This document shows positions 1,021 to 35,763 of a stretch of 64,000 nt of DNA, in pieces. This DNA comes from Methanobacteriota archaeon (lineage in GTDB: Archaea; Halobacteriota; Bog-38; Methanoflorentales; Methanoflorentaceae): positions 1,184,001-1,248,000 of the forward strand of contig OY970393.1 in NCBI GenBank assembly GCA_963720465.1, read 5' to 3'. Position numbers and translations under genes: made by a program. The notes beneath the pieces were generated by a model. The model was given only the letters and a program-made list of their open reading frames with translations. It searched no databases and was not told the DNA's origin. Every line of letters begins with the position of its first letter. Position 1 is the stretch's first letter.

Positions 1021-1962
1021 ATGAAAGGCAAGAAGGTAATCGTCACTGGCGGTTTAGGCTTCATTGGTTCGCACTTAGTGGAAGCACTTGTGGAAAAAAA
1101 CGACGTCACGGTAATCGACGACCGGTCGACGGGGAAGTTGGAGAATATCGATCATTTGGGTGACGCACGCCCGGAAGTGATCGAAGGGGACGTCACTGAA
1201 CTCAATTTACCAGAAATCTTCGACGGCTATGAGTACGTTTTTCATGAGGCAGCGCTTCCCAGCGTTCAGCGCAGCATCGACGAACCGCTGATGTCAAACC
1301 AGTCCAACGCCACTGGGACCTTGAAGGTTTTGATCGCCGCCAAAGAATCGGGTGTAAAAAAGGTGGTCTATGCTTCGTCATCATCCGTGTACGGCGACAC
1401 CGTGGAGCTCCCGAAACGGGAAGACATGTGTCTTTCACCAAAATCCCCGTACGCGGTCACGAAGGCAACTGGTGAGCTCTACAGCACGGTGTTTCACCAA
1501 GTCTACGGCCTTCACACCATATCCTTGCGCTACTTCAACGTGTTCGGACCGCGGCAAGACCCATATTCCCAGTACGCTGCCGTAATTCCTAAATTTATAA
1601 CGGCGATTCTCAGCGGTAAACCGCCGACGGTTTTCGGGGATGGCACACAGAGTAGAGACTTCACTTTCGTGAAACACGTCGTTGAAGCAAATATTCGTGC
1701 GTGCGAATCCAGCGAGACCGGAACATTCAACATCGCCTGTGGCCGCAGCATTACCCTGAACGAGTTGATTGCCCTTCTCGCCAAGATCACTGGCAGCGAT
1801 GTTAAGCCAATCTATGCCGCGCGTCGGCCAGGAGACATAAGACACTCGCTCGCTGCTATCTCAAAGGCGCGAGTATTTGGTTACGCGCCGCATAGCAATT
1901 TCGAGGACGAGCTTCAAGAGACCGTAAGGTGGTTTGAGGGTGGAATTGTACGAGAAGATTAA
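1021..1962 (+). CDS. NAD-dependent nucleotide-sugar epimerase (WbpP/Gne-like UDP-GlcNAc(A) 4-epimerase)
   Basis: TGGLGFIGSH Rossmann motif, ASSSSVYG, YAVTK (YxxxK), YFNVFGPRQDP and GDGTQSRDFT motifs. Confidence 0.92.
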   Translation: MKGKKVIVTGGLGFIGSHLVEALVEKNDVTVIDDRSTGKLENIDHLGDARPEVIEGDVTELNLPEIFDGYEYVFHEAALPSVQRSIDEPLMSNQSNATGTLKVLIAAKESGVKKVVYASSSSVYGDTVELPKREDMCLSPKSPYAVTKATGELYSTVFHQVYGLHTISLRYFNVFGPRQDPYSQYAAVIPKFITAILSGKPPTVFGDGTQSRDFTFVKHVVEANIRACESSETGTFNIACGRSITLNELIALLAKITGSDVKPIYAARRPGDIRHSLAAISKARVFGYAPHSNFEDELQETVRWFEGGIVRED

Positions 1963-3277
1963 GAGCAAATCTGCGCGCATCGCTGTCATAGGGTTGGGCT
2001 ACGTCGGACTCCCGACAGCAGTCAACTTCGCTGAGAACGGGTTCAGCGTGATCGGAGTCAATAGGACACAGGAGAAAGTTGACATCATCAATGCGGGGGG
2101 GTGCTATCTTACCGACTTGAATATCGACGAACGCGTGCGAAGACTCGTCGGCCTTCGCAAGCTCACGGCCACTATCGACACAGCTGGCGCTACACGAGAA
2201 AGCGACGTGATCATCATCACCGTCCCAACGCCGATCACGTCGTTTAAGCGACCTGATCTATCATTTATCGTTTCCGCGGGTCAGGCCATTGCCCAAGGCC
2301 TGGGTCGCAACAAGCTCGTCGTCCTGGAATCGACTGTGTACCCGGGAGTGGTTGATGACGTGCTGAAGCCGTTGCTCGAAGAGTCAGGGTTGAAAGCCGG
2401 GACCGATTTTGGACTCGCCTACTGTCCGGAGCGATATAACCCGGGAGATGCCGATCACAATATTAGGGACGTGGTCCGAATCGTTGCGGGCATCACGCCG
2501 GAATGGGCTGAAGCAACAGCGCAGTTATACCTCAGCAACGCGAAGGACGTGGTCACGGTCAAGGATATCAAAACCGCTGAGGCGGCGAAAGTCATTGAAA
2601 ACATCCAGAGAGATCTCAATATCGCGCTCATGAATGAGCTCGCGCTGATCTTCGAACGCTTGGAGATTGACATCCAAGACGTGATCGAAGCCGCTTCGAC
2701 GAAGTGGAATTTCAACGTATATCATCCGGGGGCCGGAGTCGGCGGCCACTGCTTACCCGTCGACCCATACTACCTCGTTCATAAAGCCGAGGAGCTCGGG
2801 TACCACTCCCAGGTCATTACGGCCGGCAGGGCCGTCAATGATTACATGCCACTGCACGTTTTCCAGTTGACCGTCGACGCCCTCAACGAAAGAGCGCGAG
2901 CGGTCAACAAGTCGAAAATAGTCGTGCTTGGCCTGTCCTATAAGGAGAACGTGGGCGACTACCGCGAGAGCCCGACAGCTGTTGTGATTAACGAGCTTAC
3001 AAAGAGGGGCGCGATCGTCCATATCGTCGATCCATTCATCGAAGAGGACGTCCTGCGACGGTATGCGCAACCAGAAGCGACCGCATATGACGCTCTTTCC
3101 AACGCAGATGCTCTCGTCCTTATGACTGCCCACCGGGAGTTCTTGGGGCTTGACTTGGATCGCATCAAGGCAGAAATGCGCACCGCGATCATCGTCGACG
3201 GCCGGCGGTGCTTCGACCCAGAGATCGTCGAAAAACTCGGGATCGTGTATCGAGGGGTTGGGGCCAAGAACGGGTGA
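1934..3277 (+). CDS. UDP-N-acetylhexosamine 6-dehydrogenase (WbpO/WecC family)
   Basis: GLGYVGLP, ESTVYPG, PERYNPG, AKVIEN, catalytic GGHCLPVDP and YKENVGDYRESP motifs. Overlaps the epimerase (operon). Confidence 0.93.
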   Translation: MRVELYEKIKSKSARIAVIGLGYVGLPTAVNFAENGFSVIGVNRTQEKVDIINAGGCYLTDLNIDERVRRLVGLRKLTATIDTAGATRESDVIIITVPTPITSFKRPDLSFIVSAGQAIAQGLGRNKLVVLESTVYPGVVDDVLKPLLEESGLKAGTDFGLAYCPERYNPGDADHNIRDVVRIVAGITPEWAEATAQLYLSNAKDVVTVKDIKTAEAAKVIENIQRDLNIALMNELALIFERLEIDIQDVIEAASTKWNFNVYHPGAGVGGHCLPVDPYYLVHKAEELGYHSQVITAGRAVNDYMPLHVFQLTVDALNERARAVNKSKIVVLGLSYKENVGDYRESPTAVVINELTKRGAIVHIVDPFIEEDVLRRYAQPEATAYDALSNADALVLMTAHREFLGLDLDRIKAEMRTAIIVDGRRCFDPEIVEKLGIVYRGVGAKNG

Positions 3278-3644
3278 AGGATCCGAGGTCCGCAGAGACC
3301 ACAGCGCGATAGCGACGCGGCTCGACAATAGGCTATATTGCTTGAGTATCCCAGCTGTCTCGAATCGATGCGGTTATCTGTTTTTTGGCCGGCGTATCGT
3401 CGCCCGGCACCGCACCATACCTTATGGGGCCTCGGGGGGCGTATGACCACCACTCGAAGAGGGGCAACTCCGTTCACTCTTTACAAGATACTTCGTGCGC
3501 GTTGGATCCACAGTGCGAGACCGCTTGTCAGCAAATGCTCCAAAATTGCGGGGAAGCTTTGACCTCATATTACGGATCTTCTATCTCATTAACGCTGTGG
3601 TTCAACGTCTGAGGGGGACGCTGCTGCGAAGAACGCGCTTGTCA

Positions 3645-3657
3645 CAAAAGTTAATAG
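3645..3657 (+). promoter_or_regulatory. Putative archaeal BRE/TATA promoter for the tRNA
   Basis: CAAAAG-TTAATAG about 65 nt upstream of the tRNA 5' end. Confidence 0.4.
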
Positions 3658-3720
3658 CCAGTCCGGTACACACAAGAGTTGGCTGACGATATTGTCTGCA
3701 CTCTGTTTGAACACTGGAAC

Positions 3721-3792
3721 GCCTCGGTAGTTTAGTAGGAAAAGCACTTGCTATCCAAGCAAGACTCGTTGGTTCGAATCCAACCCGGGGCA
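3721..3792 (+). tRNA. tRNA-Gly (anticodon UCC), non-canonical (A33)
   Basis: Full cloverleaf: acceptor GCCTCGG/CCGGGGC plus A73; U8 A9; D-stem GTTT/AAGC with loop AGTAGGAA (G18 G19); anticodon stem CTTGC/GCAAG with loop TA-TCC-AA (anticodon 3754-3756); 4-nt variable loop ACTC; T-arm GTTGG-TTCGAAT-CCAAC; G15:C48. No encoded CCA. Confidence 0.9.
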
Positions 3793-3939
3793 TATTTGCA
3801 GCATTGAAACTTCCGATGCTGAGCGCCCCGTAAGCAGTTTCAGAAGTTCGAGGTTCCACGTTAATTCCTACAGCGGTCGCTTCCCAAGTCCGAGCTTCTC
3901 GCCTGCGCTGTTCAATTCACATCCGCGCCATAACAATGT

Positions 3940-4175
3940 TACCGAGGCGTATTTAATTTCGTCGAAAGCACTGCGATGTTTGAACAAGCAAAAAAACTGT
4001 GCTTTGTGATGCGCGTCGGTTTTGCCAACATAGCAATGCGGTTCTCACACCGAATCAAATTTCGATTTGAATCTGGAAAGACGCGGAAAGGGCGCTTACG
4101 TGTTCGATGCCGGTTTGCACGCCTTAAACCTCCTACCGCGACCTCAGATTCGTCAAGAACCTCCTTTCCATCGCT
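3940..4175 (-). pseudogene. Relic of a Fem-like GNAT gene (internal deletion and in-frame stop)
   Basis: Clear DNA similarity to 6630-6725 and 7060-7130. Translates to ...APFPRLSRFKSKFDSV*EPHCYVGKTD..., matching the C-terminus of the GNAT paralogs. Boundaries approximate. Confidence 0.75.
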
Positions 4176-4698
4176 CTCTCGTCGCCCGGGCTTTAGCGGC
4201 GTGCTTGCGTACCCCAGGGACGGCGTACCATCGGGAGCTAGCACTCCTGTCCCGCGCCTTGCGTTTGTAAAAAGAAGCGACCTGGCTGCCCTAGGCTCAG
4301 CGTCGCGCAGGTGTCCTCCTTAACTGACACGGGGCCGCCGCGGATTTTCATTGGCTCACGACGCTGAATGTGCAAAGTGCGGTGTTTTTGCGGCGGTCAT
4401 AGGTAAAGCGCTTTACTCGTGCACGATGCTGTAGATATGTCCGTGATCTTGACCCTGACGTCGACCGTGACAGGAAGCGGCGAATGACCTCGAGCACAAG
4501 TGATCGCGCAGAAAGATATACCAAGGCGCCCTCATGGCAAACGGGCCATTGTCGTCTTACTCGCGTTACACTATTTGATGTCTGACTGACTCTCGGAACA
4601 AGAACAGACTGGCAACCTTGTAGGCCCTCTGCGCGCCCCTCATTGTCGGGTTTTGCGCCTCCCTCGTGTTCACAGCTGCACATTATCAGCGAGGGCGC

Positions 4699-5796
4699 TC
4701 AATGCAGCAGGACTAGTGGCAAAAATGGGAGCACCCCAAACAGGAGTATGTCGTCCACCGCGTGCATCGTGACGACAAACGGCAAGTTTTTTGTCTTGTA
4801 AAATGCTACGCCAAAGACGACACCCGCCCCGGTCGTGAAGAGGAGTTCGTGGACGCTACCGTAGCTCGCGTGCATGGCGCCGAAGATCACGCTCGTGATA
4901 AGGATTCCCCCGACCGCACCGCTTCGCTCCATGAGCTGCGGCTGCAGCAGGACACGAAAGAGGAGCTCCTCAACGAGCGCCACAAAGAAGATCATAACGA
5001 TGCTTAACCCGATGAGCTCTGAGGCTGACGCATTCGGGATAAGTGGTGGATTGCGAAGAATAGCGTATTCAATAAGCCCGAGCCCAAGGCCAACGAGGGC
5101 GCCAAACGGAATGAGGTACGTCAATCGGAGACCTCCCGTGAGCCCAAGGTCGTGGCGGCTCAGCTTTCGGTGTGCAACGATCGCTATGATCGGTATAAAC
5201 ATCACGCCGTAAATCGCCAGCCAGTAGTACAAGGCTACCGTTCGGATGATCAAGACGAGAGGGAAGTACATCACCCAGACGATGATGAACCAGTAGACCG
5301 CTGGCAGGAGCGCAAATGAAACGATGATGACAAGAGACACCGATAGCAAACCGAGCACTTGGAGCAGCTGTACGCGCTTACCATGCGGCACCGCCACGAT
5401 GACGGCAACCGCGATGATGTTGAGCGTTTGCACGCCGACGCCGAGCGCAGTGTGGCCTGCAAAGAGCAAGCCCTCGCCGGCGAGGATAAGAAATATGGCG
5501 AGGAGCTCATACCACGCCAAGTCGAAAACAATTCGGGCCCTAGCTGCAGAAGCTAGCGCGGCTCGTATGGTGTCAGGGAGGCGCAAAAACTTTTCCTCAA
5601 CACTGTGACTTTTCGCGGTTAAAGATACTACGTACTTCGGATGTTTTGCTATTTCTGCGATATCTGGCGTTCTATTCGTTAAACTTGTCGTACTACTTAC
5701 AAGCTGGTTATTTCTGGGCTGTTTTTCCTTATGCCACAATCGCAGCAAGCCTGTCTCGGAAAAATAACATCGTAAACGGCTGCTCATTCCGAACAT
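4699..5796 (-). CDS. CPBP family (CAAX/Rce1-like) intramembrane glutamic protease
   Basis: EELLFR, FGAMH and MHAVDD motifs with multiple TM segments. True start probably downstream of 5796. Confidence 0.85.
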   Translation of the reverse strand: MFGMSSRLRCYFSETGLLRLWHKEKQPRNNQLVSSTTSLTNRTPDIAEIAKHPKYVVSLTAKSHSVEEKFLRLPDTIRAALASAARARIVFDLAWYELLAIFLILAGEGLLFAGHTALGVGVQTLNIIAVAVIVAVPHGKRVQLLQVLGLLSVSLVIIVSFALLPAVYWFIIVWVMYFPLVLIIRTVALYYWLAIYGVMFIPIIAIVAHRKLSRHDLGLTGGLRLTYLIPFGALVGLGLGLIEYAILRNPPLIPNASASELIGLSIVMIFFVALVEELLFRVLLQPQLMERSGAVGGILITSVIFGAMHASYGSVHELLFTTGAGVVFGVAFYKTKNLPFVVTMHAVDDILLFGVLPFLPLVLLH

Positions 5797-6521
5797 CTCG
5801 GCTGCGACCAGATTGGTTTTGTTTTTTTTTGGTTATTTCGTACTACTTCAACAGCTTAAAGATACACCGTCTTAAGCATTATTACGCGTACGTAAAAAAC
5901 GCGGCCCTGATAGCTTATTTTACCTTTTGGGGTCACCGATTCAAATGCGCTGCGATAGCACTCTTAATTCAGCAACTTGGGGTGTTCGTCTGTTTTCGCC
6001 TATCGACAGCTGCGCTGTGAGTGAGTCCGATCTCTCTAAAAATCCGCTGGCAGGAAGGCACGTTAGCGTAAGCGTGCGAGAGCAGGGCCTTAAGACGGGC
6101 TGGAATTCTTTCAACTGGCACGATGTCGTAATGTCGCGTTGTATGACGGTGTTACACTACGCTCGACGCATCGCAGCTGTAGCAAATCAATAACGTTGCC
6201 TTTCAAAGTTTCGCGCTCCCGAGCTGCGCCTCCACCTGAATCGTCGGCCGTCCGAACGCTTTGGCAGCGAGCCAAGGTGTAGTTATGGCACTATGCTGTT
6301 AAGACGCTACGCAATGCGTAGCCAGTGAACGTATCCTGCGTGCCGCGAGGCCTCGCGAGAGGCATATCCTCCTTTTCGTCACTTTGAGATCGGTTATAAA
6401 GGGTCACACCGCGTTCAGTACCGGCTTTAATCGGGAATCCCCGCAAATGGCCATCGACGGTATCCATTTGCATAACAAGCTCTCGGTTTGCGAGGTTTTA
6501 GGCTCTAGGTTAGTTGCTATG

Positions 6522-7586
6522 TCAGTTTCGAGTCTCCGATTCGCCGTTCGACTCACGTCCACGCCGCCGAGGCAAGATATGCTTCTCTCCCAGCGCTGAG
6601 AGCTTTGAGTAAACAGACAGGGCGATTTTGCCAAGCGCGTCGGTTTTGTCAACATCGCAATACGGTTTGAGCTCTGGATCAAATTTTGATTTGAACATGT
6701 TAAGACGCTGAGGACCATTCGCGCCAATCAAATCCAGCATCTTAAAGCCCTCTGTTTTTGCGTGCTGAATTATCTCCCATAAGAGAAACTCGTTCGTATT
6801 CAATTCTGGGCGTGCGTTAACGCCACCGAACCAAAAGCCATAGCGGTCCTCACGCAGCGCACAGCACGCGATTGCGCCAGCGATGCTTCCGTCAATGCTG
6901 ACGGTGTGGACCGTCACACGCTGAGGAAATGCATCCACAACCTCCTCTAGATACCTATCACTAAAGAGATTCTGTCTTTCCCCGCGTTCTTTTCTTCGTT
7001 CTCGCCACATGCGAAGCACCGAGCTGACATCGCTTGTGTGCTCTACGTGAGGTGATAGTGCGCTTACGTGTTTGATGCCCTGTTTGCATCTTTTGCCGAA
7101 ACCGCCCCAGATATCGTCGAGGGGTTTTTCCAGGTCTATCGCGTACGTAAACTTGAGCTGGACCGCGTAGTTCTTCCACTCAAACGTCCGTACGTCGATG
7201 AAACTTGGAACAGTTATAAACGACAGGAAGTTGGGAGAGATCTTGTCGATTTCCGTGCACAGCTCGTCAGTCACTTGCGCAAAGACCTTCTCCTTTTTAT
7301 GTGCCCTCAGCCCGGCCACGCTGGGATCAAAAACGGGTCCTAAGTAGGGAATTTGCGCGTCTGGCGGCGGGGAGTACATTAACGTCAGCCCCCGGCGTCG
7401 AGTAACAAAAAAAGGGAGTATGCATCTGAGTTTGTTGCCTGAATATATGGCATACGGCACAAGCCGGTATCCGGAATGTCTCTCAACAATATTCAAAAAA
7501 TCCCACGTATGGAATAACGTCCCCTGTGGGCTGTTTTCGACAAACTGGTCCCAGATCTTTTTATCGTCTAGCACTTCAGCGGCCAT
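6522..7586 (-). CDS. FemABX-like GNAT protein (Acetyltransf_6), paralog 1
   Basis: WDQFVENSPQGTLFHTW, TYAIDLEKPLDDIW, LLWEIIQHAKTEGFKMLDLIG and FKSKF motifs. ATG at 7586 preferred (ORF track starts at 7613). Confidence 0.85.
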   Translation of the reverse strand: MAAEVLDDKKIWDQFVENSPQGTLFHTWDFLNIVERHSGYRLVPYAIYSGNKLRCILPFFVTRRRGLTLMYSPPPDAQIPYLGPVFDPSVAGLRAHKKEKVFAQVTDELCTEIDKISPNFLSFITVPSFIDVRTFEWKNYAVQLKFTYAIDLEKPLDDIWGGFGKRCKQGIKHVSALSPHVEHTSDVSSVLRMWRERRKERGERQNLFSDRYLEEVVDAFPQRVTVHTVSIDGSIAGAIACCALREDRYGFWFGGVNARPELNTNEFLLWEIIQHAKTEGFKMLDLIGANGPQRLNMFKSKFDPELKPYCDVDKTDALGKIALSVYSKLSALGEKHILPRRRGRESNGESETRN

Positions 7587-8719
7587 TGCGCCACCCCACA
7601 CGGTTTTCGCCACAAATCATCCAGGCACATTTCTTGCTCTGCGTTAGTCCTCTGTCGTTTATCTCCCAAGTCTCAGGTTCTCACCAGGCGCTGTTCTACT
7701 CACGTCCAATCTACCGAAGCAAGACTCGTTCTCTCGCAGTTTTGACAGCGTTGTAAACTGAACTCTCTATTTTGTAAAACTCGTCGGTTTTTTCAACATA
7801 GCAATACGGTTTGAGCTCTGGATCAAATTTTGATTTGAATCGGGAAAGATGCTCAGGCCACGCGCCAAAAAAATCCAGCGTCTTAAAGCCCTCTAATTTT
7901 GCGAGCTGAATGACCTCCCATAAAAGAAACTCATTCGTATTCAGGTCTTTGCGGGCGTTAACGTTGCCGATCCAATAGCCATACCGGTCGTCACGCAGCG
8001 CACAGCACGCGATTGCGCCAGCGATGCTTCCGTCAATGCTGATGGTGTGGACCGTCACACGCTGAGGAAATGCATCCACAACCTCCTCTAGATACCTATC
8101 ACTAAAGAGATTCTGTCTTTCCCCGCGTTCTTTTCTTCGTTCTCGCCACATGCGAAGCACCGAGCTGACATCGCTTGTGTGCTCTACGTGAGGTGATAGT
8201 GCGCTTACGTGTTTGATGCCTCGCTTGCATCTTCCAGCGAAACCGCCCCAGATATCGTCGAGGGGTTTTTCCAGGTCTATCGCGTACGTAAACTTGAGCT
8301 GGACCGCGTAGTTCTTCCACTCAAACGTCCGTACGTCGATGAAACTTGGAACAGTTATAAACGACAGGAAGTTGGGAGAGATCTTGTCGATTTCCGTGCA
8401 CAGCTCGTCAGTCACTTGCGCAAAGACCTTCTCCTTTTTATGTGCCCTCAGCCCGGCCACGCTGGGATCAAAAACGGGTCCTAAGTAGGGAATTTGCGCG
8501 TCTGGCGGCGGGGAGTACATTAACGTCAGCCCCCGGCGTCGAGTAACAAAAAAAGGGAGTATGCATCTGAGTTTGTTGCCTGAATATATGGCATACGGCA
8601 CAAGCCGGTATCCGGAATGTCTCTCAACAATATTCAAAAAATCCCACGTATGGAATAACGTCCCCTGTGGGCTGTTTTCGACAAACTGGTCCCAGATCTT
8701 TTTATCGTCTAGCACTTCA
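6850..8719. repeat. Near-identical direct repeat of about 730 bp (6850-7578 vs 7991-8719, offset 1141)
   Basis: Direct comparison by eye shows only a few differences, mainly at about 7080-7097 vs 8221-8238. Confidence 0.9.
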
Positions 8720-8727
8720 ACAGCCAT
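7711..8727 (-). CDS. FemABX-like GNAT protein, paralog 2
   Basis: Near-identical to paralog 1 over the first ~240 codons, with the same motifs. ATG at 8727 preferred. Confidence 0.85.
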   Translation of the reverse strand: MAVEVLDDKKIWDQFVENSPQGTLFHTWDFLNIVERHSGYRLVPYAIYSGNKLRCILPFFVTRRRGLTLMYSPPPDAQIPYLGPVFDPSVAGLRAHKKEKVFAQVTDELCTEIDKISPNFLSFITVPSFIDVRTFEWKNYAVQLKFTYAIDLEKPLDDIWGGFAGRCKRGIKHVSALSPHVEHTSDVSSVLRMWRERRKERGERQNLFSDRYLEEVVDAFPQRVTVHTISIDGSIAGAIACCALRDDRYGYWIGNVNARKDLNTNEFLLWEVIQLAKLEGFKTLDFFGAWPEHLSRFKSKFDPELKPYCYVEKTDEFYKIESSVYNAVKTARERVLLR

Positions 8728-8848
8728 GGTTACACGACCACGCGGCGGGTAATCGCTTTGCCGCACAATTGCTTGATCTGGGATCTGGCAAGCTAAGTTA
8801 TACCACTTGTTTCACGTTCCACCTTTTTAAGGTTTCTTGGGCTCTGCG

Positions 8849-10102
8849 TCAGCTCCTACGTCGGCCGCTTCCGCAATCGCAGGCGCGCGTGGAAACAGCT
8901 CGATTCACATACCGCGCCGAGGCAACATGCGCTTGACACTGAGTACCTGAGCTGGCTAGCTTTGAGCGTGCAAAGTTGGCAATCTTGGCCAGCATGTCAG
9001 TTCTCTCGACATAGCAAAATGGCTCTACGGCTGGATTAAATCGAAATTTGAACTCAGAAATACGCTGATTAGGGGCACCAGTCAAATCTAGCTTTTTGAA
9101 GCCCTCTGACTTTGCGCGCCGAATGATTTCCCATTCAAGATACTCAACCACACCCAGGTCTCTACGCGCACTAACGCCACCGATCCAACTACAATATCGC
9201 TCCTTTTGAATGGCACAGTACGTGCTTGCGGTAGCGAGCCTTCCGTCGATGCTGACGTTGTACACGGTCACGTCCTGGGGAAACGTAGCCACAAGCTCCT
9301 TGAGATAACTCTCGCTTAGCAGCGGCTCTTCTTTTGCACATTGGCGGAATCGTTCTCGCCAGATGGCAAGCAAGGAACTAACGTCGTTAGTTTGTTGTAC
9401 CTCAGGAGAGTAAGCGCTCACACGCTTAATCTTCTGCCTGCAGCCTCTACTAAATGATGCCCAGATCTCATCGACGGATTTTTCCAAGTTGATAGCGGAC
9501 GTGAACATCAAGTGCGCCGTGAAGTTCTTCCAAATAAAGGAGCGCACGTCAAGAAAATTTGGGACCGTCCTAAAATTCATGAAATTTGGAGCGATCTTGT
9601 CAACTTCGCTGCACAGCTCCCCAGTCACTTGCTCAAAGATCTTCTCCTTTTTATGTGCCCCCAGCCCGGCCACGCTGGGATCAAACGCGGGTCCTAAGTA
9701 GGGAATTTGTGCATCAGGTGGCGGGGAGCGCATTAGCGTCAGTCCCTGGCGTCGAGTAATAAAAAAAGGGAATACGCACATAAGTTCGTTACCTGAAAAT
9801 ATGGCATACGGCACAAGCTGGGACCCAGAATGTTTTTCAACGATCTTCAAAAAATCCCAGGTATGAAATAACGTTCCCTGTGGGCTGTTTTCGACAAACT
9901 GGTCCCAGATCTTTTTATTGTCTAGCACTTCAACAGCGATTTTTGCGTGTCCACATACTGATAGTATCAGTCCGTGCGCTAATCCGACCGGCAAGAGGAA
10001 GCAGTTCCCTAATACAATAGACGGGAGTACCACGCAAATAGCTAGAACAGCTACGCTGATGACAAGTTTTGTTAATGCGGACCCAGGTTTAACTAAGTCC
10101 AC
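8849..10102 (-). CDS. FemABX-like GNAT protein, paralog 3, with hydrophobic N-terminal extension
   Basis: Same core motifs (WDQFVENSPQGTLFHTW, FKFRF). About 55 aa of hydrophobic N-terminus. GGGGGA RBS before the GTG. Confidence 0.82.
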   Translation of the reverse strand: MDLVKPGSALTKLVISVAVLAICVVLPSIVLGNCFLLPVGLAHGLILSVCGHAKIAVEVLDNKKIWDQFVENSPQGTLFHTWDFLKIVEKHSGSQLVPYAIFSGNELMCVFPFFITRRQGLTLMRSPPPDAQIPYLGPAFDPSVAGLGAHKKEKIFEQVTGELCSEVDKIAPNFMNFRTVPNFLDVRSFIWKNFTAHLMFTSAINLEKSVDEIWASFSRGCRQKIKRVSAYSPEVQQTNDVSSLLAIWRERFRQCAKEEPLLSESYLKELVATFPQDVTVYNVSIDGRLATASTYCAIQKERYCSWIGGVSARRDLGVVEYLEWEIIRRAKSEGFKKLDLTGAPNQRISEFKFRFNPAVEPFCYVERTDMLAKIANFARSKLASSGTQCQAHVASARYVNRAVSTRACDCGSGRRRS

Positions 10103-10567
10103 TTAGTCCCCCCTTTTTTCCATGCTTGCCCTTGACGGGAAAATTAATCAAAGCGCAAACGGAGCGCGAAAGCTTAAGTGTTGCTGTCCACCCTGTGTGA
10201 CCGAGGGGGTCAGCCCGCCACGCGCCGTGACTAAACCTAGGTTACGGCGCACCCACGAGTAGGGGCAATCAAAACAGATAAAAACGAGAGAGCGTTGCAT
10301 AGCGTTCAGGGTCAAGGGCTCCGGCAGGCAAAGATAGATGCTGGAATGGGGTCGGTAGCACCTCAACAAGCTTGGACAAAGGACTTGAAAGAGGCGAAGA
10401 ATACTTTTTACCGAAACGTCCACGTCTCGATGGCAGTGACTTCAGCGGCAGGGTCTTTGAAAATCGCCGTTTATGGCGCTCTCTTGAAGTTATAGAGAGC
10501 GCTTCGTCATCGCCGATGCCTCCAGAAGCGGGGGCGGCTTCTCTTGTCTATGCGCTAGCTGCTGATT

Positions 10568-11302
10568 TCAAAGTCTGTGCAGGCGGTTAGCCCCCATTAG
10601 TGCAAGTTCATAAATCTTCGAATAATACTTCGTATAGTCGTAGCGCTCGACAAGGTCTCCCCCAAAACCTTTCTTCCAAGCACTATACCCAACTTCTTGT
10701 AAGTCGCCATCTTTAACGTAATATCTTCCGAGGTCGAATTCTCGCAGTCCCTTGGCCTTCGCGTACTTTATCGTCTCCCACACGAGCAACTTGTTCGCGT
10801 TGCCAATCAAAGAGGCTCTGTCGCGATCAACGAGTCGCTTTGATGCTGCTAGCCTCCCCAATATAGTGTGGCCATCGGCAAAACAAGCGTGGCCGCACAG
10901 TATATCTCCATCGTACTCTGCAATGAACAGCGGACCGCTTCGTTTTAAAACACTCGTCTTCTCGAAATCAGGGTAAATCCCTTTTTTCTTTCGAAACGAA
11001 TCATTCAGTTCTTGGAATTCATCATAATCTTCATTAAGTTTGACTCTGACACCAGCCCGTTGAGCGCGCTTTATATCTCTTCGAGTTGAGCTCTTGCTCA
11101 TTTTTTTCCAGATTGTGTCAAGGTCTTGCGCTAAATCTATCACTAAGTTTGTCTTGGATCTCATCTGAAAACCCGCGAGGTCTACCTTATACTTAGTGTC
11201 GGTGAACTTGACGCAGTGATAGCCCTTTACGTCAAAGGGGTACGAGCTAAACCAGACCTTTTTGGTTTTGAACCAATATCGGCGACTTTCTAACTCCAAC
11301 AT
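10568..11302 (-). CDS. Short FemX-like GNAT (glycyltransferase-like)
   Basis: LVIDLAQDLDTIWKKMSKSSTRRDIKRAQRAGV, LFIAEYDG, ANKLLVWETIKYAKAKGLREFDLG and WKKGFGG are Fem C-terminal domain signatures. Confidence 0.82.
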   Translation of the reverse strand: MLELESRRYWFKTKKVWFSSYPFDVKGYHCVKFTDTKYKVDLAGFQMRSKTNLVIDLAQDLDTIWKKMSKSSTRRDIKRAQRAGVRVKLNEDYDEFQELNDSFRKKKGIYPDFEKTSVLKRSGPLFIAEYDGDILCGHACFADGHTILGRLAASKRLVDRDRASLIGNANKLLVWETIKYAKAKGLREFDLGRYYVKDGDLQEVGYSAWKKGFGGDLVERYDYTKYYSKIYELALMGANRLHRL

Positions 11303-11872: not shown

Positions 11873-13408
11873 TCAATATGCTCGCAGCTGCCTCAAATAT
11901 GATTGGATTACACTGGACGCGGCGGCGTAAGCTTCCAAGCGGAACGAGCGCACGAAAATGAAGTAGAACGCGGCGCCGAAACTTACTTGGAGAGTCAGAT
12001 GCGCGGCATACGACCAGCTGTTTGGCAGTAGGAGGCCGAACGCCCAAACAGCTAGCGCCATCGTTGCTGCGGCGTAAAACTGAGGTGCCAGCTTTCTCAG
12101 CATGGTGGCGAAGTTCAAATCAATGAGGCGAGCTGGAATTGACCAGTTGGGGTGCCACAGCAGGAAATTAGCCACAGTATAGGCGACAGCAACGCCCAAC
12201 GCCCCCCAGCGTAGTCCCACGACGAACGAAATGATGTAGATGGATCCGACCACGAGCCCCCACCTGAACATGATGTCGGTTCGGCCCTGAGACTGATAGA
12301 GCCAAGAACCGGTGATGCCTATAGACTGAATAGCGCTAAGAATGCTAAAAACTTGAATGATGGGAATCATCCCAGCCCACGTGTCACCAAATAATGTGAG
12401 CACTAATGGGCGTGAAAGAACTAGCAGTCCCAACGAGACAGGAAACGCCACGAGCGAGATAACGCTGATTGATCGCAAATAGAGAGCCCTCACCCGTTCT
12501 ATGTCGTTTTGGATCTTTGAGAGAGCGGGAAACATGACGAATGTAATGACGCTCGCTATCTGGGTCAGCGGCAGCACTAGAATGGCGTACGAACGGGAGT
12601 AAATCCCCAAGGGTGCTGATCCTAAGTAGCGGCCGATCAACAAGTTGTCGCAATTTAGCGTCCAGTAGTTGGAAATGGCAGCACCGAGGTAGTTAGTGCC
12701 GAACTTAGAAAGATCCTTAACTGCGCTCAGTTGCAGTGAGAAATCGGGTCGCCACGGCGCCAGGACCCACACCATGGCGACGTAGACGATCGCATTAAGA
12801 ACGTACAGGGCAACGATGCTCCACACCCCAAAACCGCTCAAAGCTAAGTATATCGCGGCGGCACCCGGAATCACAGAGCTGGTCAGCCCAGCGATTGCTA
12901 GCGTACGAAAATCCATCGCTTTTTGGACGAGAGATTGCGTTATCGTACCAAATGAGTTGATGATGAAGATCGGCGAAATTGCGATGGTGAGGGACTGGAG
13001 CTCCGGGACACCATAAAAGGATGCGATGTAGGGAGCCGCTGCAGCAAAAATCAGTGTTAGTAGCACTCCCACAGCAATGCTGACCCAAAATACCGCATTC
13101 TTGTGGCGCTGTTCCACGTCCACTTTTTGAATCAAGGCTGCACCAAACCCCATATCAGTAAATAACATTGCAAACCCCGTAAAAACGACGACCATCGCAG
13201 CTAGTCCGAAGTCTTGTGGAGACAAAAGATGCATCAGGATGACGGTTACCACTAGGGAAATTAGCTGACTGCCCGCTTGCGCGATACCGCTCCACGCCAG
13301 GCCAACGCGGATTTCGCTTTCTAAGTCCTGCATTTTGACCGGAATTGCATTACCTCGTTTTGCAAAGGTTTGGTCTGCCGTGGCGCTTCTAGCCGATTCG
13401 GTGACCAC
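11873..13408 (-). CDS. Polysaccharide flippase (Wzx/WzxC, MOP superfamily)
   Basis: LLSPQDFGL, DMGFGAALIQ, DNLLIGRYLGSAPLGIY and FPALSKIQ motifs with many TM segments. Confidence 0.92.
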   Translation of the reverse strand: MVTESARSATADQTFAKRGNAIPVKMQDLESEIRVGLAWSGIAQAGSQLISLVVTVILMHLLSPQDFGLAAMVVVFTGFAMLFTDMGFGAALIQKVDVEQRHKNAVFWVSIAVGVLLTLIFAAAAPYIASFYGVPELQSLTIAISPIFIINSFGTITQSLVQKAMDFRTLAIAGLTSSVIPGAAAIYLALSGFGVWSIVALYVLNAIVYVAMVWVLAPWRPDFSLQLSAVKDLSKFGTNYLGAAISNYWTLNCDNLLIGRYLGSAPLGIYSRSYAILVLPLTQIASVITFVMFPALSKIQNDIERVRALYLRSISVISLVAFPVSLGLLVLSRPLVLTLFGDTWAGMIPIIQVFSILSAIQSIGITGSWLYQSQGRTDIMFRWGLVVGSIYIISFVVGLRWGALGVAVAYTVANFLLWHPNWSIPARLIDLNFATMLRKLAPQFYAAATMALAVWAFGLLLPNSWSYAAHLTLQVSFGAAFYFIFVRSFRLEAYAAASSVIQSYLRQLRAY

Positions 13409-13665: not shown

Positions 13666-14583
13666 TCAAGTACTCACGTTCACAAGTAGATACAGCTGCC
13701 TATAAGGCGATCCGGTGAGGTCGTCGAGGTACAGCAGAAAATCAATGCGCATGTTGTTGCCGGCACGATTAGGAGTCAGTGACAGATTTTTTTCGACCGT
13801 CTGACCGTTTGCAACGGTCTGGCGCCCTGAGTACAACGTGGTTGAGGTGTTGCCGTTCGTGAGACTGACCACAAGCAGATAGTTCTCATCTCGATTTTCA
13901 TGATTCGCGATCGCGACAGTCGCTGGTTTCGTCTGACCGACTGAGAAGTTTGTCGGGTACCCCTGCATTGTGCCTCCCGGACCAAGGAGGTACATCTCAG
14001 TGTAGTTTTCTCGGGGTTCGGGAGTCGCCAGCGAGTACAGCAGCACCGAGGCCGAAAAAAGAACGGAAAAGGCAACAAATATGGTCAGGGCCCGCGGTAC
14101 GCGGCCCGCTCTTTGCGCGCGAAGCGCTTGCATAAAATCCACGACACGCTCACTGCTCACGTCCATCCGCTGGGCAGGCGTGAGCGTGTGTCGTCGCACG
14201 TACGCAGACGCGGTCACCACCAAGATGAAGAGGGTCGCACTTGTCGCCACTGATTGGACGCTCAGCCCCCAGTCAGTGTAGTTGAGGGCCAATGCCAATA
14301 CCGGCACGATCACGGTGCTGAGGCCAAACGAAAACGCCGCGCGTTCAACACTGGTGATATCACCGTTTCGCGGAAAAAGCGCTGCGATGAAGGAATACCC
14401 GGGCACAAACAGCACGATCGGAATAACTACAACTGATCGGAGGACGCTATTGCTGAGCAAGGGCGCTGTGGCGAATACAAAGACTGCAATGCCTACTGCT
14501 AACGCAAGCAGCAAATCAACGTCCGAAATGCTGGCTCTGGATCGCGCGCCGGAGCGAGTGGATTCCATTTGTATTCCTAGCAA
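13666..14583 (-). CDS. DUF1616 family membrane protein
   Basis: LFVPGYSFIAALFP, ERAAFSFGLS, LNYT, YTEMYLLG..G....YPT and IANHE motifs of this archaeal family. Confidence 0.85.
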   Translation of the reverse strand: MLGIQMESTRSGARSRASISDVDLLLALAVGIAVFVFATAPLLSNSVLRSVVVIPIVLFVPGYSFIAALFPRNGDITSVERAAFSFGLSTVIVPVLALALNYTDWGLSVQSVATSATLFILVVTASAYVRRHTLTPAQRMDVSSERVVDFMQALRAQRAGRVPRALTIFVAFSVLFSASVLLYSLATPEPRENYTEMYLLGPGGTMQGYPTNFSVGQTKPATVAIANHENRDENYLLVVSLTNGNTSTTLYSGRQTVANGQTVEKNLSLTPNRAGNNMRIDFLLYLDDLTGSPYRQLYLLVNVST

Positions 14584-17660: not shown

Positions 17661-19391
17661 ATGTACGCCGTGTTACAGATAGATGATGGGGCCCTTATTG
17701 ACGTTCGGGACTTCGAGCACGTGGTCAGCAGCGACCGTCGGACGTTCTATTTTGATGGGACGATCGATGGATTTATTCGAAGCGACTACGCGGTTGAGCA
17801 CAGCGTTGATGCGCCCGCACTGATTAGCGAGCTTCCCAAGTGCTTGGCGAGAATTAGCGGCCAGTACGCCGGCGTTTCTATCAAAGACGGTGCGCTGGAA
17901 TTCGCTTCCAGTGATATCGGGGCCAAGCAAGAGCTATACTATGCGACGACCGATTCTGAGCTCATTATCTCAACAAATTTCTTCGACCTCGCAAAAACGG
18001 TCGGACAGCTTGAATATGACTCTATGGAGCTACCCTATTTTCTCGCTGGCGGCTACTGTCGTCACGGGAAAACGACCTTCAAGGGGATATACCAGTTGCC
18101 ACCGGGCGAAACGCTACGTCACAGTCCACAGGGCTCGATTGTTACGGAGAGCTATTTAGATGATTTCAGCGGGATCAAAGTGACGTTTGGCGTTTTCAAG
18201 AACGCGATTCTGCAGGCGATCCGTACCGCTATCCAACAGGACCCCGCCTTCGACGAGGTTGTCATGTTGTCAGGCGGCGTCGATTCTTCAGTCTTGTGCG
18301 CCTTGATCAAAAAAGTCAAGGATGTGTCCGCCGTAACCTACCGCTTTGTCCCCGCCATTTCTTGGAATCGTGCAGACGAAATCAAGTCCGAAAAAATGGC
18401 AAAAAAAATACAGGTGAAGCACGAGATAGTAGACGTCAATTTAGACGATATCAACCTCGATTACCTAGACGATGTGATAATTTCAATGCCCTTCGCGGCA
18501 CATCTTGGCGTCAATTACAAAAAGATCTTCAGTTTCGAATCTTCGGTGAATCGGAAGCGCCGGCTGTGGTGCGGACAGGACGTGGACAGCTTATACAATT
18601 ATGCTGAGACGGCACCCCTTGCAATAGCTTCACGTTTCATGTTTTCTGACACGTACGCGAGAATGCTGCGAGGTATTAATGGCTATGCAAAGTACGGATC
18701 GGCTAAGCAAGCGCTTGACCTAGTTCTCACGTCTCTGTTTCGCAGCAAGTACAGACGGCGTTTTGAAACACCTGCGTCGTTTGATGAGCTTCTGCTCGGA
18801 GTTGCGCGATCGAGGGACAAATACCCTCCCGCCTTGCGGCCCGTCGGCGAGGAGACTGAAGCTCAAAATGGTAGGGTCGACACACGTGAGCCTATCACTG
18901 TCCCTGAAATACGAAAACGCTTGGTTGATGAAATGCTCAAGACCAACCTCTCTGACGGTACACATTACATTCAGTTACAAGCGCAAAGGCTCTTCCACTT
19001 GAACAACATTTTGCTCTATTCAACCCCGAGCGTCGTTCATTTGTTTCGGCAGCTGCGATTGTCTTTGCTCGACGTGGCTTTCAGCAAGCGCCTCTTGTAT
19101 CGATACGCGCGAGAGCTCGGCTTGCCAAAAAGCGATTTTCGGTCAGTTGACTACTCTCCAAAACCGGCGCAGAGGCCGCAAGACTGGTTGGAGGTATTTG
19201 AATCGACCACTTTCGGAGGAGAACTGAGAGAGCGCGCATCGAAGTTGGCACATCAAATGGACCTCAAATGGACCCCGTCAGGAGCGAGCACCTGGGATGA
19301 GGCAGCAAGGCTCTTGTGGCTAAACAACGTCTGGTTGAAGTTGACAGAAGGCGGCGTAGATCTGAAGTGGCCCACCTTCGGGACGCGATAA
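17661..19391 (+). CDS. Asparagine-synthetase-like ATP-dependent amide ligase
   Basis: Ntn-like N-domain (ISGQYA, SDIGAKQELYY, TFKGIYQLPPG) and PP-loop MLSGGVDSS. No N-terminal catalytic Cys. Confidence 0.8.
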   Translation: MYAVLQIDDGALIDVRDFEHVVSSDRRTFYFDGTIDGFIRSDYAVEHSVDAPALISELPKCLARISGQYAGVSIKDGALEFASSDIGAKQELYYATTDSELIISTNFFDLAKTVGQLEYDSMELPYFLAGGYCRHGKTTFKGIYQLPPGETLRHSPQGSIVTESYLDDFSGIKVTFGVFKNAILQAIRTAIQQDPAFDEVVMLSGGVDSSVLCALIKKVKDVSAVTYRFVPAISWNRADEIKSEKMAKKIQVKHEIVDVNLDDINLDYLDDVIISMPFAAHLGVNYKKIFSFESSVNRKRRLWCGQDVDSLYNYAETAPLAIASRFMFSDTYARMLRGINGYAKYGSAKQALDLVLTSLFRSKYRRRFETPASFDELLLGVARSRDKYPPALRPVGEETEAQNGRVDTREPITVPEIRKRLVDEMLKTNLSDGTHYIQLQAQRLFHLNNILLYSTPSVVHLFRQLRLSLLDVAFSKRLLYRYARELGLPKSDFRSVDYSPKPAQRPQDWLEVFESTTFGGELRERASKLAHQMDLKWTPSGASTWDEAARLLWLNNVWLKLTEGGVDLKWPTFGTR

Positions 19392-26900: not shown

Positions 26901-27127
26901 GCAGACGCAGCGCCATTGGCGCCGAGCTGCCCGGTGATCGAGAAGGACTGCTTGACCTGGGCTGATGAGGGTGCAGAGATGGTGAGGGTGGTGGAGATCT
27001 TTGCAGGCGTGGCCTTAATAATGCTGAAAGGTCTTGCCTCTACCATAACGTTAGCGTTACAGAACAACAATGCACAAATCACAAGCACGACTGCGACAAT
27101 AATCACTCCTCTCTTTTCTCCAAACAT
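23945..27127 (-). CDS. Secreted or surface protein with tandem Ig-like repeats and a Pro/Thr linker
   Basis: Signal peptide, repeated ~95-100 aa modules (TTLT...F.VSG.L...GSYSF...Y...F.GD..Y), a (PT)n linker and many N-x-S/T sequons. Confidence 0.85.
26130..26400 (-). repeat. Low-complexity hexamer repeats encoding the PT/TA linker
   Basis: Arrays of GTTGGG/GTTGGT/GTTGGA/GTTGCC encoding (PT)n, TATP and TADP. Confidence 0.9.
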
Positions 27128-35262: not shown

Positions 35263-35763
35263 GCGTTTACCTCCTCGCAGGACTGCCATTTCGCGTTCTG
35301 ATAGGGCCGCACCATTGCCAAAGTCGCACTCAACTTCCACACGTTGCCAAACAGCGTGAAGCAGCCATTATCAACGCGGCTCTCTCTATCTATCGTCGTG
35401 TTTCGCTTGGATGAGCCACCCACTCCTTATAATTCGTCGATGCTCGGTGGCAGCCCACGCAACCTCTGAAACAACCCGTCTGCGGCGAGAAGCGCTATAA
35501 ACACCAACTCAGAAACGCAGTCCAATAAACGTTGGTGTATTTGGCTCAGTGTCACAGTAAGAGCGATGCTAAGCCGTTTTCTTACTGTGATGCCTCTAAA
35601 GCTCTGCTGGAGCGTATCGTTCATTATGCCTGCCTCGATCCCATACGCCGGTTGTCCGGCTCAGGTAGCTTAAGGCTGCGACCTAAAGGCATATAATGCT
35701 TATGATTTATACTTCTCGTATGAACCGAATGAAAGAACACACTGATAGAGCAGGGGGGTAGCT

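Follow-up and report, generated by a model that had tools for sequence, protein, structure and literature searches.

A surplus tRNA-Gly(UCC) with A33 beside Fem-like genes in an archaeal surface-glycan locus: a candidate glycyl donor outside translation

Staphylococci hold non-proteogenic tRNAGly(UCC) genes beside a full proteogenic set: their products are charged by the one glycyl-tRNA synthetase (GlyRS), bind EF-Tu weakly, and supply FmhB, FemA and FemB, which add glycine in turn to a lipid-linked precursor at the cytoplasmic face (passages of PMC7826273). The phage Mu protein Mom is an aminoacyltransferase that takes glycine from Gly-tRNAGly in vitro; it accepts all three E. coli Gly isoacceptors and rejects Gly-tRNAAla (main text of PMC13219725). 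We consider here a stretch of 64 kb, called the window, that covers positions 1184001-1248000 of the single contig (2.31 Mb, G+C 51.7%) of a genome holding mcrA, numerous tRNA introns and DUF1616, a combination that points to an archaeon of methanogen or alkane-oxidiser type. The window carries an extra tRNA-Gly(UCC) with an A at position 33 (A33), and an array of Fem-like genes in a surface-glycan locus. With moderate confidence, and on the strength of sequences and predicted structures, we read this tRNA as one that is set aside from translation and donates glycine to the Fem-like enzymes encoded next to it. The elements concerned are the following:

3721..3792, plus strand: extra tRNA-Gly(UCC), 72 nt (ARAGORN; Rfam tRNA model, 56.8 bits; fold)
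3925..4117, minus strand: relic, the C-terminal end of a Fem-like gene (tblastn with paralog 2; short DNA matches to paralogs 1 and 2)
6522..7613, minus strand: Fem-like paralog 1, 363 amino acids (PF13480, 1e-12)
7711..8766, minus strand: Fem-like paralog 2, 351 amino acids, tandem-GNAT FemX fold (PF13480; AlphaFold; Foldseek; profile against PDB)
8849..10102, minus strand: Fem-like paralog 3, 417 amino acids as listed (PF13480, 1.5e-12)
10568..11302, minus strand: half-size Fem-like gene, 244 amino acids (PF13480, 1.8e-7; PF02388 FemAB, 25.6 bits against a cut-off of 24)

A whole-genome ARAGORN search that allows introns finds the ordinary Gly tRNAs elsewhere: Gly-GCC at 270311-270385, Gly-UCC at 296796-296879 and Gly-CCC at 2186592-2186662. 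Calls with introns of hundreds of bases were judged spurious, and a 'tRNA-Stop(tta)' at 2276458-2276562, with a 32-nt intron, is probably a mis-parse, its exon reading as an intron-bearing tRNA-Gln(UUG). The canonical Gly-UCC, for which an earlier sequence-only reading of the window had proposed to look, has a 12-nt intron after position 37, the loop CUUCCAA and a strong TATA box. Since the set of Gly-GCC, Gly-UCC and Gly-CCC is complete elsewhere, the window tRNA is surplus.

This extra UCC isoacceptor beside a complete decoding set is the point of likeness to staphylococci. The differences are in the mark, which is A33 with T-stem A-U pairs in the window, whereas it is a T-loop UGC or UGU in staphylococci; in the host, an archaeon with mcrA; in the setting, a Wzx-type glycan locus instead of peptidoglycan; and in the position of the tRNA gene, which adjoins the enzyme genes and is present in one species of its genus only.

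The window tRNA scores well above the gathering score of the Rfam tRNA model, which is 29. Its four stems are intact, 21 of 21 stem pairs being standard or G-U, and the D-loop GG is kept. The acceptor stem is GCCUCGG/CCGGGGC, with one G-U pair, the D-stem has 4 base pairs, the anticodon stem is CUUGC/GCAAG, the variable region has 4 nt, and the T-loop is UUCGAAU; the discriminator is A73, and no CCA is encoded. The T-stem, GUUGG/CCAAC, has U50-A64 and U51-A63, while the three ordinary Gly tRNAs have CCGGG/CCCGG in common. The anticodon loop, U-A-U-C-C-A-A, has an A at position 33 instead of the near-universal U of canonical elongator tRNAs. A purine at this position is expected to disturb the U-turn, and RNAfold pairs U32 with A38 in several tRNAs with the loop UAUCCAA, which leaves a loop of 5 nt. 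We take the identity set of GlyRS in archaeal tRNA-Gly to be C35, C36, G1-C72, C2-G71 and A73; all of these are found in the window tRNA, as they are in the three canonical Gly tRNAs.

Among the ten closest tRNAs of its own genome, the window tRNA is 69-72% identical to the Gly tRNAs and 74% identical to tRNA-Glu(UUC); it is therefore not a recent duplicate. A divergence of about 30% from every own tRNA, together with intact stems, argues for selection on tRNA shape, and the gene reads as neither a fresh duplicate nor a decayed copy. It is quite improbable that it is a decaying pseudogene, in which A33 would be one of several inactivating changes. Such decay would account for the loss of U33 and for a weak promoter, described below, and an example of it may be at hand: in a second genome of the same genus (G001), an A33 tRNA called Gly(ACC) (L109, 13297-13369), with an acceptor and a D arm like those of Gly-GCC and the clashes G2-G71 and A50-C64, looks like a decaying copy of Gly-GCC. 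The blocks on either side of this tRNA map near 1.875-1.886 Mb in the genome of the window. Decay does not predict, however, that all stems of the window tRNA should be intact at such divergence, nor the high Rfam score, nor the retention of the T-loop, of the D-loop GG and of the Gly identity positions; and in a distant archaeal copy, to which we now turn, the stem changes are fully compensated with respect to the canonical paralog.

One genome for each of 185,579 species (a set that may not include the genome of the window) was scanned for the pattern UAUCCAA, 12-14 nt, GGUUCRANUCC, 8 nt, GCW. The scan returned 21 stretches, where about 13 chance matches are expected by a hand estimate, not a tool-computed one. 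ARAGORN calls a tRNA-Gly(UCC) on the match in 2 of them only, in a Bathyarchaeota metagenome-assembled genome (MAG; G041, L058) and in an Acidimicrobiaceae MAG (G042). The others were rejected as tmRNA ends, variable arms of long tRNAs, intron junctions or non-tRNA sequence. A metagenome scan for the same pattern gave 11 stretches: L080 and L084 are near-identical to the G041 locus, and not independent of it, L076 holds the same tRNA as the viral locus L124, and the rest are not called tRNA-Gly. In a Woesearchaeota MAG (L046, 784-917), a piece resembling a 3' tRNA half (TATCCAAG..., T-arm, ...GCA) directly follows an intron-bearing tRNA-Gly(CCC) and may belong to a split or permuted tRNA gene.

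The Bathyarchaeota MAG also has a canonical Gly-UCC elsewhere. With respect to it, the A33 copy has compensated changes in the acceptor stem and the T-stem, where it shows U49-A65 and A51-U63. A gene of 393 amino acids with FemAB_like (PF04339, 4.9e-27) and Acetyltransf_6 matches is found 1378 nt from this copy, in a same-strand run: decarboxylase dependent on pyridoxal phosphate (PLP), Fem, two small open reading frames (ORFs), tRNA, GT2. This genome has 4 Fem-like matches in 2.7 Mb, and the chance of a tRNA lying this near to one of them is about 0.006. The PLP-dependent group II decarboxylase gene (L071, 14945-16453) and the start of the FemAB_like gene share 26 nt, and the donor or acceptor chemistry of this cluster may involve a decarboxylated amino acid. 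No tRNA lies within 1.5 kb of the three other Fem-like loci of G041, and seven loci around Fem genes of the G041 type hold one tRNA, a tRNA-Trp. A link between Fem-like genes and tRNAs is therefore not general: it is confined to the A33 type.

The scan of IMG/VR for the UAUCCAA pattern yields 16 stretches, 3 of which ARAGORN confirms as tRNA-Gly(UCC), and 3 of these 3 adjoin DNA-modification genes of GNAT type:

G443 (L122): match to the Mom family (PF25680, 2.1e-50) at 12302-12946; tRNA at 13027-13100 on the same strand, starting 81 nt past the match
G444 (L129): tRNA at 1372-1444, directly followed by a fusion of DAM-like (PF22555, 2.4e-70) and GNAT-phage-like (PF22559, 4.2e-47) domains; region 1372-2822
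G445 (L131): tRNA at 3149-3222, then a ParB_N gene, then a DAM-like/GNAT-phage-like fusion at 3961-5331

The other 13 stretches were rejected as tRNA-Gly, most of them being a conserved element of phage tRNA arrays without an ARAGORN call. In L111-L115, L117-L120, L125 and L126, this element is a conserved stretch of about 75 nt, with TATCCAA and a T-arm, inside large phage tRNA arrays.

Mu Mom resembles these cases, and the Fem-like enzymes, in its GNAT fold and its Gly-tRNAGly donor, and a viral Mom homologue is the enzyme found upstream of the A33 tRNA in G443; Mu Mom differs from the Fem-like enzymes in having a single GNAT domain, in its acceptor, the N6 of adenine in DNA, and in its use of all the E. 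coli Gly isoacceptors (main text of PMC13219725). A term search of the same text, supplements aside, finds no mention of neighbouring tRNA genes.

Altogether, six tRNA-Gly(UCC) genes with the loop UAUCCAA are known to us: those of the window, G041, G042, G443, G444 and G445. Five of the six adjoin genes of the GNAT superfamily of the aminoacyl-tRNA type; the sixth, in G042, is at a contig end. The window is the discovery case: the four other positives are independent of it, and involve three enzyme families. As a control, viral sequences were searched for the same pattern with U33 (UUUCCAA), and 80 of at least 120 stretches were examined: 74 of the 80 loci hold a called tRNA-Gly(UCC), and 2 hold a Mom-like or DAM/GNAT-like ORF. 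These two (L185, tRNA at 7782-7855 and Mom-like ORF at 9078-9749; L202, tRNA near 4616-4656 and DAM/GNAT-like ORF at 1713-3767; about 1 kb apart in each) suggest that in some phages the partner of such an enzyme is a tRNA-Gly with the usual U33. Fisher's test of 3/3 viral A33 loci against 2/80 controls gives p = 1.1e-4, for small numbers of A33 cases and an unequal neighbour search: controls were searched by phmmer with three queries, a less sensitive method than the Pfam search applied to the A33 loci. The two DAM/GNAT queries detect each other (5e-13), so the method spans that family.

The T-stem points in the same direction. The 51-63 pair of the five A33 tRNAs with GNAT neighbours is U-A, A-U, U-A, U-A and G-U: it is other than G-C or C-G in 5 of 5, against 28 of 81 control matches, the remaining 53 having G-C or C-G (p = 0.007). 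The ordinary Gly tRNAs of both archaea, the window's and G041, have G-C there. In bacteria this pair governs the affinity for EF-Tu.

We give about even credence to the conjecture that A33 tRNA-Gly(UCC) genes, with the loop UAUCCAA and a weakened T-stem, form a recurring class, not described before, of tRNAs that donate glycine outside the ribosome in archaea and phages, each member lying beside the GNAT-fold aminoacyltransferase that it would serve: Fem-like enzymes acting on surface glycans in archaea, Mom and DAM-like/GNAT proteins in the hypermodification of phage DNA. Neither archaeal Fem-like enzymes with a private tRNA nor an A33 tRNA-Gly beside mom was found in titles and abstracts, or by term searches in PMC13219725 and PMC4574755, supplements aside. 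Besides the low counts and the unequal searches, two loci without a recognisable GNAT neighbour have to be weighed. In G042, which counts neither way, the contig ends about 200 nt past the tRNA, and the other side holds 18 kb of housekeeping genes with no Fem or Mom. In viral scans with related loops, UAGCCAA gave 3 stretches and no tRNA-Gly, and CAUCCAA gave 7 stretches and one true tRNA-Gly, a Gly-UCC with C32 and A33 on a phage contig (L258); this contig has no recognisable GNAT neighbour, several neighbours being without a Pfam match. With L258 counted as a miss, the comparison becomes 3/4 against 2/80 (p = 4e-4).

A non-U33 base is by itself no proof of a role outside the ribosome, which is a further caution, since C33 also occurs: in a sample of 401 genomes of the phylum, five have a tRNA-Gly(CCC) with the loop CCCCCAA and otherwise ordinary arms (L101, L105, L106, L107 and L108, in G221, G283, G268, G248 and G423). 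In a further genome (L104, G235) the loop is similar, and ARAGORN reads a 4-base anticodon. Gly tRNAs with A33 are found in the same sample in the window's genome and in G001 only. The C33 tRNAs lend some colour to the idea of a variant still active in translation, kept for its resistance to anticodon-loop nucleases or for a special decoding of GGN codons, and phage tRNAs with altered anticodon loops have been discussed as a counter-defence. We hold this to be very improbable for the window tRNA: it gives no reason to expect GNAT or Fem neighbours, a purine at 33 should disturb the U-turn, and the canonical Gly-UCC is retained.

We now turn to the enzymes. PF13480 (Acetyltransf_6) is above its cut-off in all four Fem-like genes of the window, and 4 of the 4 PF13480 matches of the 2.31-Mb genome lie in this cluster; PF02388 (FemAB) exceeds its cut-off solely in the gene of 244 amino acids. 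Identity to paralog 1 is 86% for paralog 2, 59% for paralog 3 and 25% for the 244-residue protein, whose alignment is limited to the C-terminal GNAT half. The sequence-only reading had counted four intact FemABX-like genes: three are indeed full-length, but the fourth is half-size and consists of the C-terminal half alone. Its GNAT relic is recovered by tblastn within the window as a piece of 52 amino acids (42% identity, E = 2e-5), with a second weak piece. The paralogs arose by recent tandem duplication. With the upstream start, paralog 3 gains a hydrophobic stretch at its N-terminus; and since the homologues of paralog 2 mostly begin at its residue 14, the true start of paralog 2 is probably 8727.

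The family is large: a word-indexed search finds 159 proteins at E <= 1e-5 among 1434 candidates, and an exhaustive search finds 1968 representatives at E <= 1e-3, of which 128 are at E <= 1e-30; near homologues of the Fem-like proteins bear the NCBI label 'Halobacteriota archaeon'. Against PDB, a single-sequence phmmer search with paralog 2 returns no match. A profile of 76 sequences reaches FemX (5.7e-10), FmhB (4e-8), aminoacyl-tRNA peptide synthases of the Sbb17 type (1.8e-6) and FemA (0.016); the remaining 4 of its 13 matches are designed proteins with E > 0.03. The AlphaFold model of paralog 2 has a predicted local distance difference test score of 95.7 and a predicted template modelling (TM) score of 0.91. 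Foldseek, proposed earlier for a comparison with FemX, ranks FemA, FemX, FmhB and the Sbb17 and Sba18 aminoacyl-tRNA peptide synthases in places 1 to 11 (E from 3e-13 to 6e-11), with a best TM of 0.72 to Weissella FemX; MprF domains come next, and tandem GNATs acting on acyl-CoA are lower (TM 0.36-0.53). Both the two-domain, tandem-GNAT Fem fold and homology at the profile level are thus found.

The best whole-chain match is FemX of Weissella viridescens (PDB 1NE9 and 4II9; TM 0.71-0.72, about 335 amino acids, profile E = 5.7e-10). The model and this enzyme are both tandem GNATs without the coiled-coil arm of FemA; they differ in sequence, identity being 12-14%, and FemX takes ordinary Ala-tRNA and UDP-MurNAc-pentapeptide. 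A C-terminal FKxKF stretch contains a nearly invariant lysine (K298 in the numbering of trimmed paralog 2), and the printed profile alignment stops at FemX residue 294. We take the catalytic residues of FemX to be Lys305 and Phe304, and our guess is that K298 is equivalent to Lys305. MprF and the aminoacyl-phosphatidylglycerol synthases have the same tandem-GNAT fold of aminoacyl-tRNA transferases; the match to them (TM 0.51-0.56) is weaker than that to FemX, and paralogs 1 and 2 have no membrane flippase domain.

Assuming that the tRNA and the enzymes do work together, the following sequence of events can be proposed. The single GlyRS of the cell would charge the window tRNA, which keeps G1-C72, C2-G71, A73, C35 and C36. 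The A33 that removes the U-turn base, and the A-U pairs that replace G-C in the T-stem, would be expected to render it ill suited to both the ribosome and the elongation factor. Its glycine would thus be left for the three FemX-fold paralogs, and perhaps for the half-size fourth protein, which would attach it, perhaps one residue at a time, to an amino or hydroxyl group of a lipid-linked glycan at the cytoplasmic face, before flipping by Wzx. Charging, exclusion from translation and use by the Fem-like enzymes are all inferences. The choice of a lipid-linked glycan as acceptor follows from the context of Wzx, GT4 and UDP-sugar genes and from the analogy with lipid II, and that of stepwise addition from the presence of three paralogs.

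The remaining features of the locus are given here, in order of position:

1021..1962, plus strand: NAD-dependent sugar-nucleotide epimerase/dehydratase family gene, 313 amino acids (Pfam PF01370, 5e-58)
1934..3277, plus strand: UDP-glucose/GDP-mannose (UDP-sugar) dehydrogenase family gene, 447 amino acids (Pfam PF03721, PF00984, PF03720)
4699..5796, minus strand: CPBP/Rce1-like glutamic-type intramembrane protease, 365 amino acids (PF02517, 3e-19; NCBIfam matches to Mrt-type CPBP all below cut-off)
11873..13408, minus strand: Wzx-type polysaccharide flippase, 511 amino acids (PF13440, 1.7e-86)
13666..14583, minus strand: DUF1616 membrane protein, part of the glycan locus (PF07760, 6.9e-74)
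17661..19391, plus strand: asparagine-synthase (AsnB)-like amidotransferase (PF00733; NCBIfam matches, including the XrtA/PEP-CTERM amidotransferase, far below cut-off)

The layout described in the sequence-only reading holds in most respects: ARAGORN finds a single tRNA in the 64 kb, right after an epimerase/dehydrogenase pair that Pfam confirms, and the Wzx flippase does lie beyond the Fem-like genes. The CPBP/Rce1-like protease gene, between the relic and the array, had been overlooked. The tRNA starts 443 nt past the stop codon of the dehydrogenase, 133 nt from the Fem relic and 2.7 kb from the Fem cluster. A random point of the genome would lie this near to the cluster with p ~0.004, a figure that does not count as a test because the case was picked for its adjacency. 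Beyond Wzx, the window holds the DUF1616 gene, the AsnB-like amidotransferase, which may belong to the same glycan pathway, a methyltransferase, several GT4 glycosyltransferases, a Branch-family transferase and two large Ig-repeat surface proteins. The latter two are very large proteins with Ig-like repeats (Big_3_5) encoded at 23945-27127 and 32659-35340 on the minus strand, among GT4 genes; their genes have a strong excess of G over C on the plus strand (GC skew up to 0.47), and they may be the glycosylated surface proteins of this locus. Among the large window ORFs scanned, there is no aminoacyl-tRNA synthetase paralog or other tRNA-related gene.

The presence of a CPBP protease, an AsnB-like amidotransferase and Fem-like genes echoes the bacterial PEP-CTERM/exosortase exopolysaccharide loci, TIGR03019 and TIGR03108 being the best NCBIfam matches, far below cut-off. 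Glycosyltransferases, a flippase and an AsnB-like amidotransferase are common to the window and to the loci of the TIGR03019 FemAB (XrtA/PEP-CTERM). However, although TIGR03019 (pepcterm_femAB) is the best NCBIfam match of all four Fem-like genes, they score 24.6-61.1 bits against a cut-off of 260 and do not belong to that family; and no exosortase is seen, a CPBP protease being there instead. We know of no test of the function of the bacterial TIGR03019 family itself.

The relatives give a different picture from the distant cases, and what follows weighs against a tie between the tRNA and the Fem-like enzymes. A BLAST search of 41 genomes with the window tRNA and its flanks finds them in their own genome only, in 0 of 40 relatives, and a search for the A33 pattern over the same relatives returns the own genome and one chance non-tRNA match in G009. 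No tRNA lies in 12 loci with Fem-like genes (168 kb) from seven related genomes, five of the same genus or family and two of the same phylum, and a permissive Rfam scan (E <= 1) of seven loci (65 kb) gives no tRNA match. In most relatives the enzymes thus do their work with no such tRNA. In G003, the interval from a conserved upstream gene to CPBP holds other genes in place of the epimerase/dehydrogenase/tRNA block: the window tRNA is thus at a variable junction, which is the strongest point against a functional tie, and it has a dead Fem fragment beside it. The tRNA gene and the Fem array are convergent. Most tRNAs of the genome have a clear TATA box 25-40 nt upstream, whereas the window tRNA has a weak TATA-like GATATT at -33 to -27, resembling the box of tRNA-Glu(UUC); it may be processed from the same-strand epimerase/dehydrogenase transcript. 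The staphylococcal mark, UGC or UGU for UUC in the T-loop (passages of PMC7826273), is absent from it. The A33 tRNA of G001 has cupredoxin, Ig-like, flavodoxin and DUF1697 genes as neighbours and no Fem gene. Farther away, the closest orthologue of the G041 Fem gene, in G043 (60% identity), has no tRNA within 2.2 kb and no neighbours in common with it.

The Fem array itself is a stable feature. Paralog 2 has matches in 10 of the 41 genomes, its own included, and none in G001, which is 80% complete. Four genomes of the same genus (G003, G007, G010 and G011) have orthologous tandem Fem arrays of 2-4 copies, at 54-63% identity, often with CPBP, GT4 and Wzx genes near. CPBP orthologues, at 60-67% identity, are found in L031, L033 and L036, from relatives in the genus; the distance from CPBP to Fem is about 2 kb or less in the G003 and G007 loci and about 14 kb in that of G011. 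The Fem array and the locus type are conserved in the genus and the tRNA is not: it is an optional accessory. On our reading this species would have gained it as such, in a way similar to that described for the staphylococcal tRNAGly paralogues (passages of PMC7826273).

The same facts could also be explained by a stray tRNA, acquired horizontally with a mobile element or a swapped glycan cassette, that came to rest at a recombination junction of a variable surface-glycan locus and has no tie to Fem. It would then be natural that the tRNA is no closer to the own Gly tRNAs than to tRNA-Glu, that 40 relatives lack it, that G003 has a different set of genes from the conserved upstream gene to CPBP, that a dead Fem fragment adjoins it, that G001 carries an A33 Gly-like tRNA in an unrelated setting, and that A33 Gly tRNAs occur also in viruses. 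However, base composition around the tRNA is not anomalous, no partial tRNA copy or att-like repeat exists in the window or in the genome, and the closest match to Phage_integrase is some 48 kb away from the start of the window. An integration scar as the sole explanation of the position of the tRNA was rejected on the last two grounds, as the sequence-only reading had held. A stray tRNA also leaves unexplained that 5 of 6 UAUCCAA tRNA-Gly(UCC) genes lie beside aminoacyl-tRNA-type GNAT genes, against 2 of 80 controls. We regard this explanation as unlikely; moreover, a foreign origin and a functional tie are compatible with each other.

The private Gly-tRNA supplying Fem-like transferases, as first proposed for this window, thus keeps the support of the surplus copy, of the FemX fold and of recurrence at a distance, in the Bathyarchaeota MAG with its FemAB_like gene and in three viral contigs with Mom or DAM-like/GNAT genes; the linkage that had been expected in other genomes is found neither within the genus nor in the 40 relatives.

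To our knowledge, dedicated non-translational tRNAs have so far been a staphylococcal curiosity. If the reading of the window tRNA as a glycyl donor is true, the archaeal case would extend tRNA-dependent addition of glycine to archaeal surface glycans, and the very common, unstudied archaeal genes of the Acetyltransf_6/Fem-like type would gain a testable function. A spare tRNA-Gly(UCC) in which U33 has become A appears to mark aminoacyl-tRNA-dependent GNAT genes, including those of Mom-type phage DNA hypermodification, and A33 may mark such tRNAs across archaea and phages. If the class is real, looking for the odd tRNA in genomes could lead to new tRNA-dependent transferases, and the prediction is that DAM-like/GNAT fusions also use a Gly-tRNA donor, and that some phages bring their own donor tRNA.

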